This document shows positions 1 to 4,709 of a stretch of 4,709 nucleotides of DNA, piece by piece. The position numbers were made by a program, and so were the translations under genes. The notes under the pieces are model-generated. The model had not been told where the DNA came from. It saw only the letters and a list, made by a program, of their open reading frames with translations, and ran no database searches. This DNA comes from a virus. Lineage: Duplodnaviria > Heunggongvirae > Uroviricota > Caudoviricetes. Position 1 is the first letter of the stretch, and each line of letters begins with the position of its first letter. The DNA is taken from the IMG/VR virus record IMGVR_UViG_2690316142_000012, positions 1-4,709 of that record. The stretch is one strand, 5' to 3'.

Positions 1-30
1 TCTTAAGTCCAAACGGACAGGAGATTTAAA

Positions 31-324
31 ATGAAATTCACTTCAACCACGAATCATGTTTTCACATTCGAACGAGTAACGCTTTGCACGATTGTTCTTA
101 TTCATAAGGATACGGGACAACAGTATGTTGTCATATTTACGGATAACAATAAAATTCGTGACTATAAGACCGGAATTGTTTCTCAGTTTGGTGAACTTAA
201 GCAGAGTGATATTGATTTAATTCTTTTCTATCGGGACGAATATGAAAAATATTTTGACTCGTTAAATAATGGCGAGGAGTATTTGAGTTTTAAAGAATAT
301 ATCGGATGTATAAGGGGAAAATAA
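31..324 (+). CDS. hypothetical small protein (97 aa), no recognisable domain
   Basis: ATG at 31 preceded by AGGAG at 19..23 (7-nt spacing); uninterrupted 97-codon ORF; AT-rich codon usage typical of horizontally acquired morons; followed by further small ORFs and a terminator at 562..590. Confidence 0.6.
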   Translation: MKFTSTTNHVFTFERVTLCTIVLIHKDTGQQYVVIFTDNNKIRDYKTGIVSQFGELKQSDIDLILFYRDEYEKYFDSLNNGEEYLSFKEYIGCIRGK

Positions 325-327
325 ATT

Positions 328-387
328 ATGAAAGGTGTGTTCAGGTTGCTGGAACAACCTGAACACGTTATCGACAATCAAAACTGA
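328..387 (+). CDS. possible micro-ORF (19 aa, MKGVFRLLEQPEHVIDNQN)
   Basis: ATG at 328 lies 9 nt after AAGGGGA (312..318), 3 nt after the stop of the 97-aa gene; too short for the ORF track; coding status uncertain. Confidence 0.2.
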   Translation: MKGVFRLLEQPEHVIDNQN

Positions 388-400
388 ATGAGGTTTTTAA

Positions 401-538
401 ATGTCAACACGACAGATCGTACAGCTTGCTGACTCCCTTGTCAAAGGCTGGGAAACCAGAATTCCGGCAATGACGTGCACGGAGTGGGATCAATTCCGGT
501 GGTGGTTAAACTACCTGCAAGGGTATGAAATGTTTTAA
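401..538 (+). CDS. possible small protein (45 aa, Trp-rich: MSTRQIVQLADSLVKGWETRIPAMTCTEWDQFRWWLNYLQGYEMF)
   Basis: ATG at 401 preceded by GAGG at 390..393 (about 8-nt spacing); ORF ends at TAA 536..538, 24 nt before an intrinsic terminator hairpin; below the ORF-track size cutoff. Confidence 0.35.
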   Translation: MSTRQIVQLADSLVKGWETRIPAMTCTEWDQFRWWLNYLQGYEMF

Positions 539-561
539 ATAACCGGGATAAATTCATATAT

Positions 562-590
562 GGGGAGAGTGTCATGCTCTCCCTTTCTTA
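562..590 (+). terminator. intrinsic terminator for the plus-strand small-gene operon
   Basis: Stem GGGAGAG (563..569) / CTCTCCC (577..583) with 7-nt loop, followed by TTTCTTATT. Confidence 0.55.
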
Positions 591-608
591 TTGGGTAGCG
601 AGTTGTAT

Positions 609-657
609 TACATATTTAGCTTTACGTTGTAAAGATTTTATTGTCTTTACAGTGTGG
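609..657. repeat. bipartite palindromic element, copy 1 (CTTTAC-GTT-GTAAAG at 620..634, then CTTTACAGTGTGG at 645..657); candidate operator
   Basis: Perfect 6-bp inverted arms with 3-bp spacer; second half-element starts 16 bp after the first element ends; same architecture at copies 2 and 3; shares ATTACATA..AGCTTTAC lead-in with copy 2. Confidence 0.7.
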
Positions 658-735
658 TGCGTTTTCCGGCGGTTGCGCTGCGCTTAGGGGTATGTGGCTT
701 CGATGATCCAGGGTATTTCGACGTAATGCGTTGTA

Positions 736-1179
736 TTACGATGTATACTCTTTAATTGCTTGCAATCTCTTTTCACGTTCGTTGCTTTGTTGGGCCTTTT
801 CCAGTTGGCTGTATATGTACTCTTCATCTTTACCCGTGAGTATTGAGCCGGAGAGCAGACGATTAATAACTATACGTTTAATTTCTGGGTAATCTTTGGT
901 TTTATCGAGTATGGACAATATGTGGTCACTGCTAAGAATTATCCCACTCCATGAGTCTAAATAGCTCTTAAAAATCACAATCATAAACACACCGAAAAGC
1001 ATTATGATGATTGTTACCACATTAATGCTAAACGTTGATATAAAGGTATACGCGGCCACACCAATTATTGCTAAACAGAGACATAAATAAATGAAACCGA
1101 TTTTGTTGCGTTGCTTTTTTTCTGCACGATCATGATCATCTATGATTTCCAGTATCTTTTCTGGGATTAGTTGAGTCAT
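736..1179 (-). CDS. small membrane protein (147 aa), two predicted transmembrane helices, ~77-aa soluble C-terminal domain; function unknown
   Basis: ATG at 1177..1179 (minus) preceded by AAGGAA with ~5-nt spacing; two hydrophobic stretches (IGFIYLCLCLAIIGVAAYTFI and VVTIIIMLFGVFMIVIF) separated by a short loop; charged N- and C-termini. Confidence 0.7.
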   Translation of the reverse strand: MTQLIPEKILEIIDDHDRAEKKQRNKIGFIYLCLCLAIIGVAAYTFISTFSINVVTIIIMLFGVFMIVIFKSYLDSWSGIILSSDHILSILDKTKDYPEIKRIVINRLLSGSILTGKDEEYIYSQLEKAQQSNEREKRLQAIKEYTS

Positions 1180-1211
1180 TTTCTTTCCTTATTTGGGACA
1201 CGGAGTGTTTA

Positions 1212-1260
1212 ATTACATAGCTTTACATTGTAAATCTATGTTTGTCTTTACGATGTAAAT
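1212..1260. repeat. bipartite palindromic element, copy 2 (CTTTAC-ATT-GTAAAT at 1221..1235, CTTTAC-GAT-GTAAAT at 1246..1260); candidate operator over the membrane-gene promoter/leader
   Basis: Same 16-bp spacing between elements as copies 1 and 3; sits between the membrane-protein start codon (1179) and a candidate minus-strand promoter. Confidence 0.7.
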
Positions 1261-1287
1261 GATGAGATGTGCAGTTAAAAGTGTCAA
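1259..1287 (-). promoter_or_regulatory. candidate sigma70 promoter for the membrane-protein gene
   Basis: On the minus strand: perfect -35 TTGACA (plus 1282..1287), 17-bp spacer, -10 CATCAT (plus 1259..1264); the transcript would start inside repeat copy 2. Confidence 0.3.
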
Positions 1288-1359
1288 TCAGATATCATAT
1301 AGTAAAATACTATATTATTTTCTATGTATCACATACACAGCGATAAAACTGGATAAATG

Positions 1360-1397
1360 ACTTACACTGTAAAGATTGAGCTGTCTTTACAGTGTGG
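1360..1397. repeat. bipartite palindromic element, copy 3 (ACTTAC-ACT-GTAAAG at 1360..1374, CTTTACAGTGTGG at 1385..1397); upstream of the hicA promoter
   Basis: Second half identical to that of copy 1 (CTTTACAGTGTGG); same 16-bp spacing. Confidence 0.65.
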
Positions 1398-1423
1398 TTC
1401 ATAAGGCATACGAATGAAATAAT

Positions 1424-1452
1424 TTGCCTTTGTGTGTATGCGTGTGTATAAT
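1424..1452 (+). promoter_or_regulatory. candidate sigma70 promoter of hicAB
   Basis: -35 TTGCCT (1424..1429), 17-bp spacer, consensus -10 TATAAT (1447..1452), about 24 nt upstream of the hicA ATG; spacer is an alternating purine-pyrimidine tract (TGTGTGTATGCGTGTG). Confidence 0.5.
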
Positions 1453-1475
1453 TATCCTCAGGTTAGGGAGGACAT

Positions 1476-1658
1476 ATGAAATCTGCTGACCTGTTGAAAG
1501 AACTGATAGCTGCTGGTTGCGAGTTGAAACGGCATAAGGCAAGCAGTCACCAGATATGGTGGTCGCCAATAACAGGAAAAACTTTTCCTGTTCCTCATCC
1601 TAAAAAGGACTTGCCGCTAGGTACTGTCAGATCGATCAAAAAAATGGCGGGGATTTAA
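1476..1658 (+). CDS. hicA: HicA-family type II toxin (mRNA interferase), 60 aa
   Basis: GGGAGG RBS 4 nt upstream of ATG; protein has HicA hallmarks: small size, a His-containing segment (SSHQIW) and the characteristic C-terminal PHPKKDLPLGTVRSIKKMAG motif; immediately followed by a HicB-like gene. Confidence 0.9.
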   Translation: MKSADLLKELIAAGCELKRHKASSHQIWWSPITGKTFPVPHPKKDLPLGTVRSIKKMAGI

Positions 1659-1666
1659 TCCCCGCC
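1646..1666 (+). other. perfect 9-bp stem hairpin spanning the hicA stop codon (GGCGGGGAT-tta-ATCCCCGCC)
   Basis: Inverted repeat read directly; hicA TAA stop (1656..1658) sits in the loop; no T-run follows, so not a simple terminator; 7 nt upstream of the hicB RBS. Confidence 0.5.
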
Positions 1667-1682
1667 GACTTTGGAGGTAGCC

Positions 1683-2120
1683 ATGTTCTTTTCTGTTGGT
1701 GTCGAAACACCGAAAGATGATCATACAGCATACGGTATCACCGTTCCGGTTTTTGATTGCTTTGATTTTGGATGTGTTTCTGCTGCTGATTCTCAGGCAG
1801 AAATACCCGCAATGGCGCGTGAAGCGATATTGGCAATCGTGGAAGAGATGGTAATAAGCGGTGCTCATTCTGTTGATGATATTCATGATGAAGGGTGTTT
1901 GACTTATTCCGCCAACCCAAATTATAACCACTGTGATAGCTGGTTTGTAATTGATGTTGATTTGTCAGAAATTGAGGGCAAACAACAACGTATTAATATT
2001 TCATTGCCTGATGTATTGATTCGTCGTATTGATGGATATGTGAGAGAAAGTGGTGGCGTATACAAAGATCGTAGCCATTTTCTGGCTCAGGCGGCACGTC
2101 ATGAACTTGCATATAAATAA
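1683..2120 (+). CDS. hicB: HicB-family type II antitoxin (145 aa) with C-terminal ribbon-helix-helix DNA-binding domain
   Basis: ATG at 1683 with GGAGG (1673..1677) 5 nt upstream (ORF track extends to a TTG at 1671); N-terminal HicB-like region and C-terminal RINISLPDVLIRRIDGYV...RSHFLAQAARHEL typical of RHH (CopG-like) domains; directly downstream of hicA. Confidence 0.85.
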   Translation: MFFSVGVETPKDDHTAYGITVPVFDCFDFGCVSAADSQAEIPAMAREAILAIVEEMVISGAHSVDDIHDEGCLTYSANPNYNHCDSWFVIDVDLSEIEGKQQRINISLPDVLIRRIDGYVRESGGVYKDRSHFLAQAARHELAYK

Positions 2121-2124
2121 AACT

Positions 2125-2152
2125 ATCCCCGCGTTGTGCGGGGATTTTTTTT
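2125..2152 (+). terminator. strong intrinsic terminator after hicB, probably bidirectional
   Basis: Perfect 8-bp GC-rich stem ATCCCCGC (2125..2132) / GCGGGGAT (2138..2145), 5-nt loop, then T8 (2145..2152); on the minus strand the same hairpin is followed by AGTTTTATTTAT, so it may also end the convergent minus-strand operon. Confidence 0.8.
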
Positions 2153-2159
2153 GATAGCT

Positions 2160-2221
2160 AACCGCTCGCCGCAGTCCAGCGACCGAGCATAGCGAGCGAG
2201 TGACGAGGAAGCGGAAGATCC
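2160..2221. other. segment resembling ColE1/pMB1-type plasmid backbone sequence (origin-proximal region of pBR322/pUC)
   Basis: From memory of the pUC/pBR322 sequence (ACCGCTCGCCGCAGCCGAACGACCGAGCGCAGCGAGTCAGTGAGCGAGGAAGCGGAAGA): the window has ACCGCTCGCCGCAG..CGACCGAGC..AGCGAG..CGAGGAAGCGGAAGA in the same order; roughly 80-85 percent identity by eye, not computed. Confidence 0.45.
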
Positions 2222-2250
2222 ACCGTTGCCAGGAGAAAAGCAGGTACGCA

Positions 2251-2571
2251 CTATGCGTTCTGCCCTAGTGATGCTTTCACAAACCACGCAGCCTGAACTA
2301 TTACGCCATGAATCCAGCGCAAATCGGCATCACGATTTTCTTTTTTCATTTTTTCGCCACTTAAAGCCTTGCTTACGTGACTTTTTACCAGATTTTCGTG
2401 TAATTCTTTTGCTTCTTCAATTGTGAAACCACCAGGCAAATTTGGCGCTTCTGCTTCCAGCGATGCCAGTGCGATTTCATAAGCCCGACGCTCAATATTG
2501 TCTCGGACGTCCAGGCTGCCTATACGCTCTCTGATTTCTTTAATCAGTTCTTTGTCGGTTAAAGTGGTCAT
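2251..2571 (-). CDS. hypothetical prophage early-region protein (106 aa); N-terminal module shared with the 136-aa protein
   Basis: ATG overlaps the stop of the upstream 171-aa gene (ATGA); AAGGAA RBS 7 nt upstream; shares the motif IALASLEAEA and a 19-nt nucleotide identity with gene 3385..3795. Confidence 0.7.
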   Translation of the reverse strand: MTTLTDKELIKEIRERIGSLDVRDNIERRAYEIALASLEAEAPNLPGGFTIEEAKELHENLVKSHVSKALSGEKMKKENRDADLRWIHGVIVQAAWFVKASLGQNA

Positions 2572-3083
2572 GCTGCGTTTCCTTCTTTCTTATTAACAAT
2601 TACACCGTCATATATTTCATTAAGGTGTCCTCTTAGCTCCATGCGCCTTAATGCAGATAACATGTAATCGCATTCAACCTGCTTATTCCCAGTAAATGGC
2701 TTATCGTCAGGATTACCCCAACAGCAATTACCCCTGGGCCATCCATGTACTTTCCGTACTCTTCCGTTAACAACGTGAAGTAATCCCCAGCCGGGAGGTA
2801 AATCCTCAACTGAAATAATTTCCGGCTCACTAATAAAGAATCGCCAGTCGCCCATGCCAAGTGAGGGATTTTTACGGAAACGCTTTTTTCTATCTGCCAA
2901 CAAGTCAGCACGAGAACACTTCGCCTCTATCAGGCATGATGCTGAATTTCTGAATCCCATAGCATCTGGCTGTTCTCCGGTACTGGTTACAGCAACAAAG
3001 CGGTCATGAAAGCAAACCTTGAACCCGTTGCGCTTAAGGAACTTGTACGCAATCTGACAGAGTTCGTGGTGTGTTAACGCCAT
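2568..3083 (-). CDS. PD-(D/E)xK nuclease-like protein (171 aa), possibly MmcB-like; tentative
   Basis: Start at ATG 3081..3083 (MALTHHELCQ) preceded by GGGAAAGGAAAGTGAT; motif order E...PD(AMGF)...(L)IEAK(CS) matches the PD-(D/E)xK nuclease core; the ORF-track N-terminal extension (MGKESD) is probably not translated. Confidence 0.7.
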   Translation of the reverse strand: MALTHHELCQIAYKFLKRNGFKVCFHDRFVAVTSTGEQPDAMGFRNSASCLIEAKCSRADLLADRKKRFRKNPSLGMGDWRFFISEPEIISVEDLPPGWGLLHVVNGRVRKVHGWPRGNCCWGNPDDKPFTGNKQVECDYMLSALRRMELRGHLNEIYDGVIVNKKEGNAA

Positions 3084-3119
3084 ATCACTTTCCTTTCCCA
3101 TGTTGTCATGTGTTAGTCC

Positions 3120-3383
3120 TTATCCTGCTGTGCTTTCAACTGATGAGGGGAATAAAATCTTTTCATCAAATCCGGCATTCATATCATGGACAGCAACACA
3201 CCAATCCATCGACGAACGATTATCAAGAGCCTCCATGATTTCATCCATGCGGCGCAGGTCATACAGGTAAATGCTTTTATCGCCAATGGTGTAAAAACCA
3301 ATTTTTTTCGGTGATGGGCAGCGATCAAGAACGTCCTGTAATTCGTTCAACCATGCCCGTTCTTTTTTTGTTAAAGTTGCCAT
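3120..3383 (-). CDS. hypothetical prophage early-region protein (87 aa)
   Basis: Start at ATG 3381..3383 (MATLTKKERAW) preceded by AAAGGAGAGTGAT; the upstream gene's stop lies 1 nt before this ATG (TGA-T-ATG); the longer ORF in the track is an out-of-frame read-through of the upstream gene's 3' end. Confidence 0.7.
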   Translation of the reverse strand: MATLTKKERAWLNELQDVLDRCPSPKKIGFYTIGDKSIYLYDLRRMDEIMEALDNRSSMDWCVAVHDMNAGFDEKILFPSSVESTAG

Positions 3384-3396
3384 ATCACTCTCCTTT
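3242..3396. repeat. 155-bp exact direct repeat, copy 1 (identical to 4555..4709)
   Basis: Base-by-base identity read from the sequence; covers the RBS and first 47 codons of the 87-aa gene; left boundary is sharp (3241 T versus 4554 A). Confidence 0.95.
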
Positions 3397-3795
3397 CCCA
3401 TGAAGCATAGCGGCGCGGCAGGCGTTCCAGCCTGTAGCGTATGCAGCCGCTTTGCTGCTGCCTTCAACTGGCGCATCCTGCCAATACATTTCATCCGGCA
3501 CTACCGGCGCTGGCAAGGCTGCGTGATAGTAGAGTGGCATAGTTTTGTACAGTGGTTCGCCAGGACTTCCGTCAACCTGATTCCATTCTTCAACCCAGGC
3601 ATCAACAACCGCTTTGCTGGTTGATACATGTTCTTCTGAATCTACATTTTGTCCTGATATACAGAACATAACTGCCTCTGCTTCCAGCGATGCCAGAGCA
3701 ATTCGTGCCAGTTCCATTTGTTCGCCACGAGTAAGTCCGTTATCAAGCGGATTTTTAATGAATAATTTGATACGTTCTTTGGTTATAGCGTTCAT
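3385..3795 (-). CDS. hypothetical prophage early-region protein (136 aa); N-terminal module shared with the 106-aa protein
   Basis: Start at ATG 3793..3795 (MNAITKERIK) preceded by AAGGAGAGTGAG; the upstream 203-aa gene's stop lies 1 nt before it (TGA-G-ATG); contains ELARIALASLEAEA. Confidence 0.7.
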   Translation of the reverse strand: MNAITKERIKLFIKNPLDNGLTRGEQMELARIALASLEAEAVMFCISGQNVDSEEHVSTSKAVVDAWVEEWNQVDGSPGEPLYKTMPLYYHAALPAPVVPDEMYWQDAPVEGSSKAAAYATGWNACRAAMLHGKGE

Positions 3796-3796
3796 C

Positions 3797-4408
3797 TCAC
3801 TCTCCTTTGATGCGAATGCCAGTAGCGCGGATTGCATCGATGACTTCAGAAACTTTGTATGCCATTACCGTTTGGTAATCATCGTGAAAATCTGTTCGAT
3901 GAAGCATGCTGCTACGTTCCGGGAGCGATATTTCCCGAGCATCCAGTTCCTTAACGCGCTCCTCCAGTTCGTAGACCCTGCATTGTTCTCTATCATCAAT
4001 CAGATATAACCCAAGACATTCGCTTTCTACCCAACCGCCAAAATCATGATCGTAACGCTCACATGAAAACTCACCGTCACCGTCCTTTGTTGGAATGGTG
4101 TAACTATCTAATGGGCCACCATATGTCGGCACATTTCCCAATGTTGGATGCTCAATCCACATGAAAAATGCACGTCCGGTTATTGGGCAAATATCTGGCC
4201 GCCATTGGTTACGAACAGCCTTGGTTTCGGATAATTCTTCAGCGTGTTGTTTTACTTCCTCAAGCTCGTATCGCTTCAGGTTTGCGATATTTGATAAATT
4301 CAGCGCCAGTACAGCCAGGTCATAAACCTCTTCGGCAGTGACATCGCTGTTCAGTCCCATTTCATGGCGATATATGATTTTTTCTACTCGTTGTTTTGTG
4401 ATCGTCAT
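3797..4408 (-). CDS. hypothetical prophage early-region protein (203 aa); possibly ead/Ea22-like, unverified
   Basis: Longest ORF in the operon; preferred start ATG at 4406..4408 (MTITKQRVEK) with GGAG 11 nt upstream; ORF track extends to a TTG at 4432; ends KGE-stop within the RBS of the next gene. Confidence 0.65.
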   Translation of the reverse strand: MTITKQRVEKIIYRHEMGLNSDVTAEEVYDLAVLALNLSNIANLKRYELEEVKQHAEELSETKAVRNQWRPDICPITGRAFFMWIEHPTLGNVPTYGGPLDSYTIPTKDGDGEFSCERYDHDFGGWVESECLGLYLIDDREQCRVYELEERVKELDAREISLPERSSMLHRTDFHDDYQTVMAYKVSEVIDAIRATGIRIKGE

Positions 4409-4516
4409 TTTTCTCTTCACTCCGATATACAAGGATTACCACACCCCCTCTGCTGATTGCGCGAGCTGGATCCCCTGGTTCCATGCCGTCAATTCCGAAG
4501 GCTTCGGAAAACGCAT

Positions 4517-4696
4517 TCATTGCCTTCTGGCGTTCATCCTGCTTACGGCGTTTACATCCATGCGGCGCAGGTCATACAGGTAAATGCTTTTATCGCCAAT
4601 GGTGTAAAAACCAATTTTTTTCGGTGATGGGCAGCGATCAAGAACGTCCTGTAATTCGTTCAACCATGCCCGTTCTTTTTTTGTTAAAGTTGCCAT
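4517..4696 (-). pseudogene. truncated chimeric duplicate of the 87-aa gene (first 47 codons identical, then 12 unrelated codons and a stop; 59 aa)
   Basis: Lies in copy 2 of the 155-bp repeat; translation from ATG 4694..4696 gives MATLTKKERAWLNELQDVLDRCPSPKKIGFYTIGDKSIYLYDLRRMD then VNAVSRMNARRQ-stop; the preceding 4698..4709 encodes a KGE-stop gene end as at 3385 and 3797. Confidence 0.4.
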
Positions 4697-4709
4697 ATCA
4701 CTCTCCTTT
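4555..4709. repeat. 155-bp exact direct repeat, copy 2 (identical to 3242..3396); continues to the window edge
   Basis: Offset of exactly 1313 bp from copy 1; true extent unknown because the window ends. Confidence 0.95.

Follow-up and report, generated by a model that had tools for sequence, protein, structure and literature searches.

A hicAB cassette with an internal hairpin in a virus-catalogued contig, very probably the HicA^T^B toxin-antitoxin module of IncI2 plasmids

Genes and signals at the locus

The 4,709-nucleotide stretch analysed here, referred to as the window (IMG/VR virus record IMGVR_UViG_2690316142_000012, positions 1 to 4,709), contains a toxin-first hicAB gene pair with its own promoter and its own terminator, and therefore a self-contained cassette (Table 1). 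The cassette is very probably the HicA^T^B type II toxin-antitoxin module of IncI2 conjugative plasmids, a system that is already known and experimentally characterised and that involves no new biology.

A first-pass annotation of this DNA had called a toxin-first hicAB pair, with a 60-amino-acid (aa) HicA bearing the family's C-terminal signature and a HicB ending in a ribbon-helix-helix (RHH) domain, and had proposed alignment against family profiles as a check. All of this was borne out. HicA matches Pfam HicA_toxin PF07927 (E=1.1e-15, 58 bits, cut-off 27; residues 4-60 on profile positions 2-58 of 58), and HicB matches HicB_lk_antitox PF15919 (E=1.3e-26, 93.6 bits, cut-off 27; residues 7-138 on positions 5-123 of 123). 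Residues 1-60 of HicA align to the solved structures 4C26 and 6G26 (E~1e-8; 1.7e-8 given for HicA of Burkholderia pseudomallei) and to 4P78, while residues 8-140 of HicB align to 6G1N, the HicB of Burkholderia pseudomallei (E=1.1e-11), and residues 29-142 to 4P78, with HicB3 of Yersinia pestis. The RHH segment is residues 103-140 (RINISLPDVLIRRIDGYV...RSHFLAQAARH), a strand-helix-helix aligned in both 6G1N and 4P78; an RHH domain, COG0864, was also assigned to the C-terminal region of HicB by Lin et al. (PMC11878559). An NCBIfam profile search gave no match for either protein at E<=0.01, and the family naming therefore rests on Pfam and the PDB structures. Likewise, no defence-system model of PADLOC-DB 2.0 matches HicA or HicB at E<=0.01. 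His25 of HicA is aligned with the S-H motif histidine of HicA3, which we take to be the active-site His28, and also with that of the GGSH motif of close chromosomal homologues.

The mechanical list of open reading frames (ORFs) opens hicB at TTG 1671; the ATG at 1683 is used here. ORFs on the minus strand within the module, such as 1617-1931 (104 aa), were set aside as spurious, being unsupported and overlapping two well-supported genes.

The consensus -10 and the strong terminator of the first-pass annotation were also found. The promoter matches the consensus at 10 of 12 positions. The window holds no excess of promoter-like sites overall, with 12 found against 11.2 expected. The promoter is kept, however, in the copies of the cassette on IncI2, IncX4, IncF and Klebsiella plasmids, and the sequence upstream of it diverges there. 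An extended -10 was rejected, the TG being one base out of register. By our own assignment this promoter is probably the short-leader P2 of Lin et al., and a transcript start would be expected at ~1459-1460, some 5-6 nt ahead of the hicA ribosome-binding site (RBS). The two copies of GTGTGTAT at 1432-1449, read from the sequence and lying in a block conserved across plasmid types, are a candidate operator for the RHH domain of HicB. Both genes have a strong GGAGG RBS (PMC11878559).

The end terminator folds at -16 kcal/mol (z=-3.85). The terminator scan flags it on both strands, with a minus-strand tail, AGTTTTATTT, weaker than the plus-strand T7 run, and it probably ends both of the transcription units that converge on it.

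The limits of the cassette can be read from its copies. The block of homology common with IncX4 plasmids corresponds to window 1423-2151. Copies on different plasmid types share the promoter core TTGTGTGTATGYGTGTGTATAAT and the RBS block but have unrelated sequence upstream of ~1423, and the mobile unit is therefore placed at ~1423-2151, which coincides with the 1424-2152 of the first-pass annotation. The cassette travels among IncI2, IncX4 and IncF plasmids as one piece.

Table 1. Features of the hicAB cassette and of its surroundings in the window
Feature	Position	Strand	Description
Divergent promoter-like region	1259-1308	+/-	Between the 147-aa gene and hicAB, bracketed by box pairs
Palindromic box pair, CTTTAC-N3-GTAAAG type	1357-1402		Outside the cassette, upstream of its promoter; specific to the IncI2 backbone
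Sigma-70 promoter, cassette-internal	1424-1452	+	TTGCCT (1424-1429), 17 nt, TATAAT (1447-1452)
Direct repeat GTGTGTAT	1432-1439 and 1442-1449		Overlaps promoter spacer and -10; read from the sequence
hicA RBS	1465-1471	+	AGGGAGG; invariant in the alignment of plasmid copies
hicA	1476-1658	+	60-aa ORF, C-terminus ...PHPKKDLPLGTVRSIKKMAGI; HicA toxin, mRNA interferase family with a fold like the double-stranded RNA-binding domain (dsRBD)
Internal 'hicA-specific' hairpin	1646-1666	+	GGCGGGGAT-TTA-ATCCCCGCC; 9-bp GC-rich stem across the hicA stop codon
hicB RBS	1673-1677	+	GGAGG; 6 nt past the internal hairpin; conserved in homologues
hicB	1683-2120	+	145 aa counted from ATG; N-terminal HicA-binding HicB fold and C-terminal RHH
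Operon-end intrinsic terminator	2125-2152		Stem 2125-2145, 9 bp (6 GC), then T7 run to 2152
Convergent gene string	2251-4432	-	ead/Ea22-like genes and genes of unknown function; all PHROG matches of unknown function

Identity with the module of pHNSHP45

The proteins encoded by the cassette are 100% identical to those of pHNSHP45, an IncI2 mcr-1 plasmid (WP_000833470 for HicA, WP_000466318 for HicB). Over window 1400-2160 there are six differences from pHNSHP45 (1406, 1428, 1434, 1454, 1456, 1457), all upstream of the hicA start and all except that at 1406 in or beside the promoter. The coding DNA, the 24-bp spacer with its hairpin and the end terminator are identical in the two, and both have the same divergent neighbour, a gene for a 147-aa membrane protein (~94% DNA identity), and the same position relative to nikA and the origin of transfer (oriT). 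To the right of the module the two differ in their genes, the window having more ead/Ea22-like genes, part of which match prophages and not IncI2 plasmids.

For proteins and DNA identical to these, the literature has established toxicity, neutralisation, complex formation, HicB self-repression, competition between plasmids and an mRNA ratio of 10:1 that depends on the hairpin. HicA is toxic and bacteriostatic and is neutralised by HicB (Lin et al., Nucleic Acids Res 2025, PMC11878559); the HicA-HicB complex was seen by pull-down and two-hybrid assays, and HicB represses its own promoter (PMC11878559). When plasmids competed within cells, the wild type exceeded the hicAB deletion by >1500:1 at generation 80 (PMC11878559). 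About three quarters of IncI2 plasmids carry hicAB, and the subfamily name HicA^T^B was given in contrast to the HicA^O^B of IncX4 plasmids (PMC11878559).

The internal hairpin

The hairpin between the two genes, overlooked in the first-pass annotation, is the noncanonical terminator that defines the HicA^T^B subfamily. As in that subfamily, the ORFs do not overlap but lie 24 bp apart (1659-1682), with a GC-rich hairpin and a short U tract before the hicB RBS; here the hairpin is followed by GACTTT, with TTT at 1670-1672. It folds at -18.1 kcal/mol (z=-4.84), which no shuffle equalled.

The hairpin is identical base for base in the IncX4, IncF and Klebsiella plasmid copies, whose overall identity to the cassette is 88%, 76% and 72%. 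A Vibrio plasmid copy has another stem, CGCGGGC/GCCCGCG, in which complementarity is retained, and compensatory changes were found in Vibrio, Xenorhabdus, Yersinia and Spirabiliibacterium homologues. When representative genomes were scanned, 25 loci encoding relatives came up, from Yersinia, Xenorhabdus, Proteus, Serratia, Buttiauxella, Salmonella diarizonae and Spirabiliibacterium – most on contigs far above plasmid size and one on a complete chromosome. In nearly all 25 a hairpin spans the hicA stop at -12 to -22 kcal/mol; that of Buttiauxella is weaker, with a 6-bp stem.

Covariation was assessed over 22 distinct intergenic regions. 83.8% of cells were paired, and 4 of the 9 pairs had changed on both sides. 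Among 500 shuffles, four of the five pairing measures were reached by 0-3, and the fifth (further pair types) by 125. Counting pairs on the MAFFT alignment underestimates pairing, as the register of the hairpin is shifted in Vibrio, Buttiauxella and Spirabiliibacterium; folding of each sequence, used beside the alignment, recovers a hairpin 3' of hicA in nearly all homologues. The conserved ...AGI-stop is encoded by the 5' arm, and synonymous changes there are matched in the 3' arm, which is non-coding.

In pHNSHP45 hicA and hicB are cotranscribed, with hicA mRNA ~10-fold over hicB and a sharp drop in RNA-seq past hicA (PMC11878559). A 13-bp deletion in the hairpin equalises the two mRNAs and abolishes the competitive advantage, and translation of HicB is reduced as well (PMC11878559).

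The scan called the hairpin a canonical terminator on the minus strand only. There, 1638-1666 forms a canonical intrinsic terminator, the 9-bp stem being followed by a T7 run that comes from the Lys-Lys codons of hicA, and this reading could halt antisense transcription before hicA.

The hairpin might act mainly otherwise – as a 3' stem-loop that shields processed hicA mRNA from exonucleases, or as the antisense terminator just described – and either would yield an excess of hicA. The textbook terminator on the minus strand, as opposed to a bare TTT on the plus strand, agrees with this, as do the retention of the A7 tract in most homologues and the position of the hairpin against the hicB RBS, given the reduced HicB translation. 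This is nevertheless distinctly unlikely: the drop after hicA is in sense-strand RNA-seq and is levelled by deletion of the hairpin (PMC11878559), the A7 tract is also explained by the conserved Lys-Lys codons of ...SIKKMAGI, the promoter scan found no minus-strand promoter-like site between 1667 and 2250, and the bidirectional terminator at 2125-2145 already shields the module.

The carrier replicon

Window 1-3396 is 99.94% identical to the IncI2 plasmid pEc42_3. This plasmid, like its relatives, has repA, hok, a ProQ/FinO gene, nikA/nikB (with the large relaxase), virB-type transfer genes, a type IV pilus (pil) cluster and a PilV shufflon, and PLSDB types the relatives pHN1122-1 and pHNSHP45 as IncI2, MOBP, MPF_T and conjugative. 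The cassette (1400-2160) is found in 380 records of complete Escherichia coli genomes, where 384 of its 385 places are on plasmids and one is chromosomal. It matches 710 PLSDB plasmids (665 conjugative), 535 of which hold at least 80% of it. Among 50,697 phage records there was no close match, the sole match (72%, partial) being in a Pasteurella phage.

Because of the identity with the IncI2 backbone, the plasmid places in E. coli and the lack of a close phage match, the cassette is read as a plasmid gene pair and not as the prophage moron proposed in the first-pass annotation. The own promoter and terminator of such a moron are present; location in a phage or prophage genome is not. The conjugative backbone of IncI2 type that goes with HicA^T^B is present, with the caveat that the right end of the window matches prophage. 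Whatever the origin of that end, hicAB and everything to the left of it are IncI2 backbone.

Carriage by a temperate phage, with HicA bringing about abortive infection upon attack by other phages, would make the pair a moron for phage defence. The moron-like anatomy accords with this, the PHROGs category of the HicA and HicB families is 'moron, auxiliary metabolic gene and host takeover', and the converging genes are ead/Ea22-like, window 3102-4554 being 99-100% identical to the ea region of a lambdoid prophage; HicA domains in general are proposed as anti-phage effectors in the title of one preprint, 10.1101/2023.12.08.570793. It is highly improbable all the same. Besides the distribution given above and the lack of a PADLOC model, deletion of the identical module from pHNSHP45 changed neither resistance to the lytic E. 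coli phages tested nor conjugation frequency (PMC11878559), and carriage of the module by a prophage is largely refuted.

The genes to the right do converge on hicAB, as had been stated, though they are not specific to a prophage early operon: ead/Ea22-like genes are common to IncI2 plasmids and lambdoid prophages. At the DNA level the minus-strand genes match the ead/Ea22-like region of Shiga toxin (Stx) phages, other lambdoid phages and P7, and such genes also adjoin hicAB in IncI2 plasmids, pHN1122-1 matching window 337-3703. Neighbours of this kind can make a plasmid region resemble a prophage to annotation pipelines. One of the minus-strand ORFs, of 171 aa (2568-3083), is intact in the window (phrog_9263, E=1e-120); its counterpart carries a frameshift in the annotation of pEc42_3 and pC21-1, and that of pHN1122-1 is shorter.

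Further right, window 3102-4267 (99.1%) and 4260-4554 (100%) match a chromosomal lambdoid prophage, in which the matched stretch sits between an excisionase gene and a gene for a LexA-family repressor. None of the IncI2 plasmids in PLSDB carries window 3704-4550. The last 159 bases (4551-4709) are a 99.4% identical repeat of 3239-3396. The repeat lies within a 264-bp gene, and annotations of IncI2 plasmids and of the same prophage both include the gene's product, WP_000224227. ORF 4517-4696 is a hybrid; its first 47 residues match the 87-aa protein. The window is either a plasmid-prophage mosaic or an assembly join through the shared repeat. A third possibility, capture of hicAB by a prophage that makes up the entire window, was rejected: hicAB and the prophage-like part are not joined in any chromosome or phage record, and the best whole-window coverage is 81%, with all such matches on ~60-kb plasmids.

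Several points weigh against the assignment to the IncI2 module. Window 3397-4550 is absent from the IncI2 plasmids of PLSDB and 99-100% identical to the chromosomal prophage, so that the replicon from which the contig as a whole derives is not proven. The published assays were made on the pHNSHP45 copy, and the -35 hexamer and the candidate operator each contain one of the six promoter-region differences, so that the level of expression could differ; we infer that the present copy behaves as that of pHNSHP45 despite them. Ribonuclease activity is ascribed to the present HicA from what its family does. Finally, HicA of B. pseudomallei needs both His24 and Gly22 for toxicity, and in the ...KASSHQ... 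of the present protein the equivalent of Gly22 is not glycine, being Ala22 in the phmmer register or Ser23 in the GGSH register. Since a protein identical to this HicA is toxic in a published assay, that glycine is probably inessential in the clade; the Gly22 position matters in one member and is not a defining feature of the HicA family.

Proposed mode of action

In the proposed mechanism, the cassette promoter would transcribe hicA and then hicB. HicA would be a small bacteriostatic toxin which, by analogy with its family, would have a dsRBD-like fold and cleave mRNA independently of the ribosome, through the putative catalytic His25. The N-terminal domain of HicB, again as expected from the family, would bind and neutralise it, and the C-terminal RHH domain would repress the promoter. 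The hairpin would stop most transcripts past hicA and damp translation of hicB, leaving toxin mRNA ~10-fold over antitoxin mRNA. On loss of the source of hicB, for instance by segregation to a competing plasmid without the module, growth of the cell or lineage would be arrested, and the carrier plasmid would thereby displace rivals of the same incompatibility group that lack hicAB.

In classical post-segregational killing, the textbook role of plasmid toxin-antitoxin pairs, the main benefit would instead be vertical stability, through killing of segregants free of the IncI2 plasmid. The module did stabilise an unstable high-copy vector, pCA24N, for 480 generations (PMC11878559). Yet pHNSHP45 is still stably kept at about one copy without hicAB, without stbDE, or without both plus oriT, and HicB is stable in lysate up to 12 h, unlike the labile antitoxins that classical killing requires (PMC11878559), and this is an unlikely main role. 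The first-pass annotation had offered phage defence or stabilisation of the element. For defence there is no effect against the lytic phages tested; stabilisation applies to a heterologous unstable plasmid but not to the native one.

Displacement of rivals is the preferred role. Since an identical module enables a plasmid to oust its rivals and to persist when no antibiotic selects for it (PMC11878559), its presence flags the contig as part of the backbone of a persistent resistance plasmid.

Comparison with other HicAB systems

HicAB of B. pseudomallei (4C26, 6G26, 6G1N) resembles the pair in the window in its HicA of the 60-aa class, with a ...VPHPKKDLP.GTV.SI.K.AG. C-terminus, and in its HicB with an N-terminal domain and a C-terminal RHH. 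It differs in being chromosomal, in having been studied for persister formation and in the presence of Gly22, and we know of no internal terminator described for it. HicA3-HicB3 of Y. pestis (4P78, 4P7D) shares the RHH-type HicB and the S-H motif histidine aligned with His25; it is more distant (E=4.5e-5, 5.3e-5) and chromosomal.

The HicB of E. coli K-12 carries a helix-turn-helix instead of an RHH domain. The K-12 pair has the same toxin-first order, but amino-acid identity is only ~20% (PMC11878559) and there is no intergenic terminator. K-12 hicAB has two promoters, of which the short-leader one favours translation of hicB, and this was stated to be consistent with the findings on IncI2 hicAB (PMC11878559).

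HicA^O^B of IncX4 plasmids (pJIE143, p14EC007a) is likewise a hicAB pair on mcr-1 plasmids. Its ORFs overlap, it lacks the internal terminator, protein identity is <26%, and the advantage it confers is only ~3:1 (PMC11878559). IncX4-type plasmids of 33-40 kb also hold a HicA^T^B cassette with the terminator, 88% identical to that of the window (pCFSAN000111_01, 1554-2198). It converges with a hypothetical gene and a TraL-like gene and occupies an equivalent position near the transfer-origin side. With a terminator-bearing cassette on IncX4-type plasmids, the T-type is therefore not confined to IncI2.

Lambdoid prophage morons are similar in being cassettes of promoter, gene and terminator between backbone genes, and share the ead/Ea22-like neighbours; the present carrier is a conjugative plasmid, with no close match in the phage collection.

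Copies of HicB that are 99-100% identical over the matched stretch were also seen in a 21-kb contig of a metagenome-assembled 'Bacillota bacterium' and in a 584-bp contig of Haemophilus sputorum CCUG 13788. Both are probably mis-binned or contaminating enterobacterial plasmid sequence.

A truncated hicB in pHAB-6-type plasmids

The observations in this section, and those on boxes and the leading region in the next, are modest leads. There are 145 pHAB-6-type plasmids in PLSDB (at least 99% identical, ~60 kb; pHAB-6 is typed IncI2) that lack hicA^T and keep a truncated HicB of 99 aa, with the N-terminal toxin-binding domain and no RHH. The pHAB-6 stretch 1163-2826 corresponds to window ~540-1965. 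The truncated gene has ~90% DNA identity to the intact allele, with a ratio of non-synonymous to synonymous substitution rates (dN/dS) of 0.22 over 94 codons; it is directly preceded by CTTTAC boxes and the 5' arm of the hairpin is lost, while the same end-terminator hairpin is kept.

These plasmids have a second, unrelated hicAB with overlapping genes (HicA 82 aa, HicB 115 aa; ~88% DNA identity to the IncX4 HicA^O^B), which lies across the 147-aa membrane gene from the truncated hicB. The 99-aa fragment could be an anti-addiction gene or the remnant of one, giving immunity to displacement by HicA^T^B plasmids. Neither 'truncat' nor 'orphan' occurs in PMC11878559.

Boxes, upstream promoters and the leading side

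Palindromic 15-bp boxes of the form CTTTAC-N3-GTAAAG occur between genes as pairs or stacks ~25 bp apart, at 620-659, 1221-1260 and 1360-1399 in the window and also at 3677, 4405-4500 and 7399-7440 in the pEc42_3 stretch. Ten of the 13 matches in the 58.8-kb plasmid fall within 3.6-9.3 kb, compared with 3.3 expected per whole shuffled plasmid. Immediately upstream of a ParA/MipZ-like gene there are at least three boxes; the gene after it, at 3365-3649 of pEc42_3, encodes a 94-aa protein with no Pfam match. The boxes flank the 147-aa gene on both sides and are absent upstream of hicAB in the IncX4, IncF and Klebsiella plasmids. They resemble a centromere or an operator regulon; a literature search found nothing specific on IncI2 partition or on such boxes.

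Between the box pairs, the divergent promoter-like region has one minus-strand site (TTGACA-17-CATCAT, 1287->1259) and two plus-strand sites (TTAAAA-17-TATAGT, 1275-1303; GTGTCA-16-TAAAAT, 1281-1308). PMC11878559, with its 'distinct transcriptional start sites', implies an upstream hicAB promoter P1; a plus-strand site here could be that promoter, and a plasmid-wide regulator acting through the boxes may set toxin output through P1.

A distance of 2.4-4.6 kb separates the module from the nikA-proximal intergenic region in pEc42_3 and pHNSHP45. The module points toward this region from the side away from nikAB. This side is presumably the leading side, by analogy with IncI1 R64 and ColIb-P9. 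The intergenic region is where oriT is located (PMC11878559). By the same analogy, hicAB may be a leading-region gene expressed early in transconjugants; a literature search gave nothing linking HicA with plasmid leading regions. Taken together, anti-addiction by the HicB fragment, a P1 regulated by the boxes and early expression from the leading region make up a doubtful reading, which is absent from the available text of PMC11878559.

The predicted 147-aa membrane protein (736-1179, minus strand) is encoded divergently from hicAB and always adjoins it in IncI2 plasmids, with 83-94% DNA identity between variants. No Pfam, PHROG or PADLOC profile matches it, and its NCBIfam match, to the STM3941 family, is sub-threshold (19 bits, cut-off 40).

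At the left end, in window 1-36, the 35-36 bases through the start of a 97-aa ORF (tcttaagtccaaacggacaggagatttaaaATGAAA) recur exactly before two other plus-strand genes, at 4952-4987 and 5682-5716 of the pEc42_3 stretch. This repeat is a common 5' leader and RBS module of unrelated small genes in the IncI2 region.

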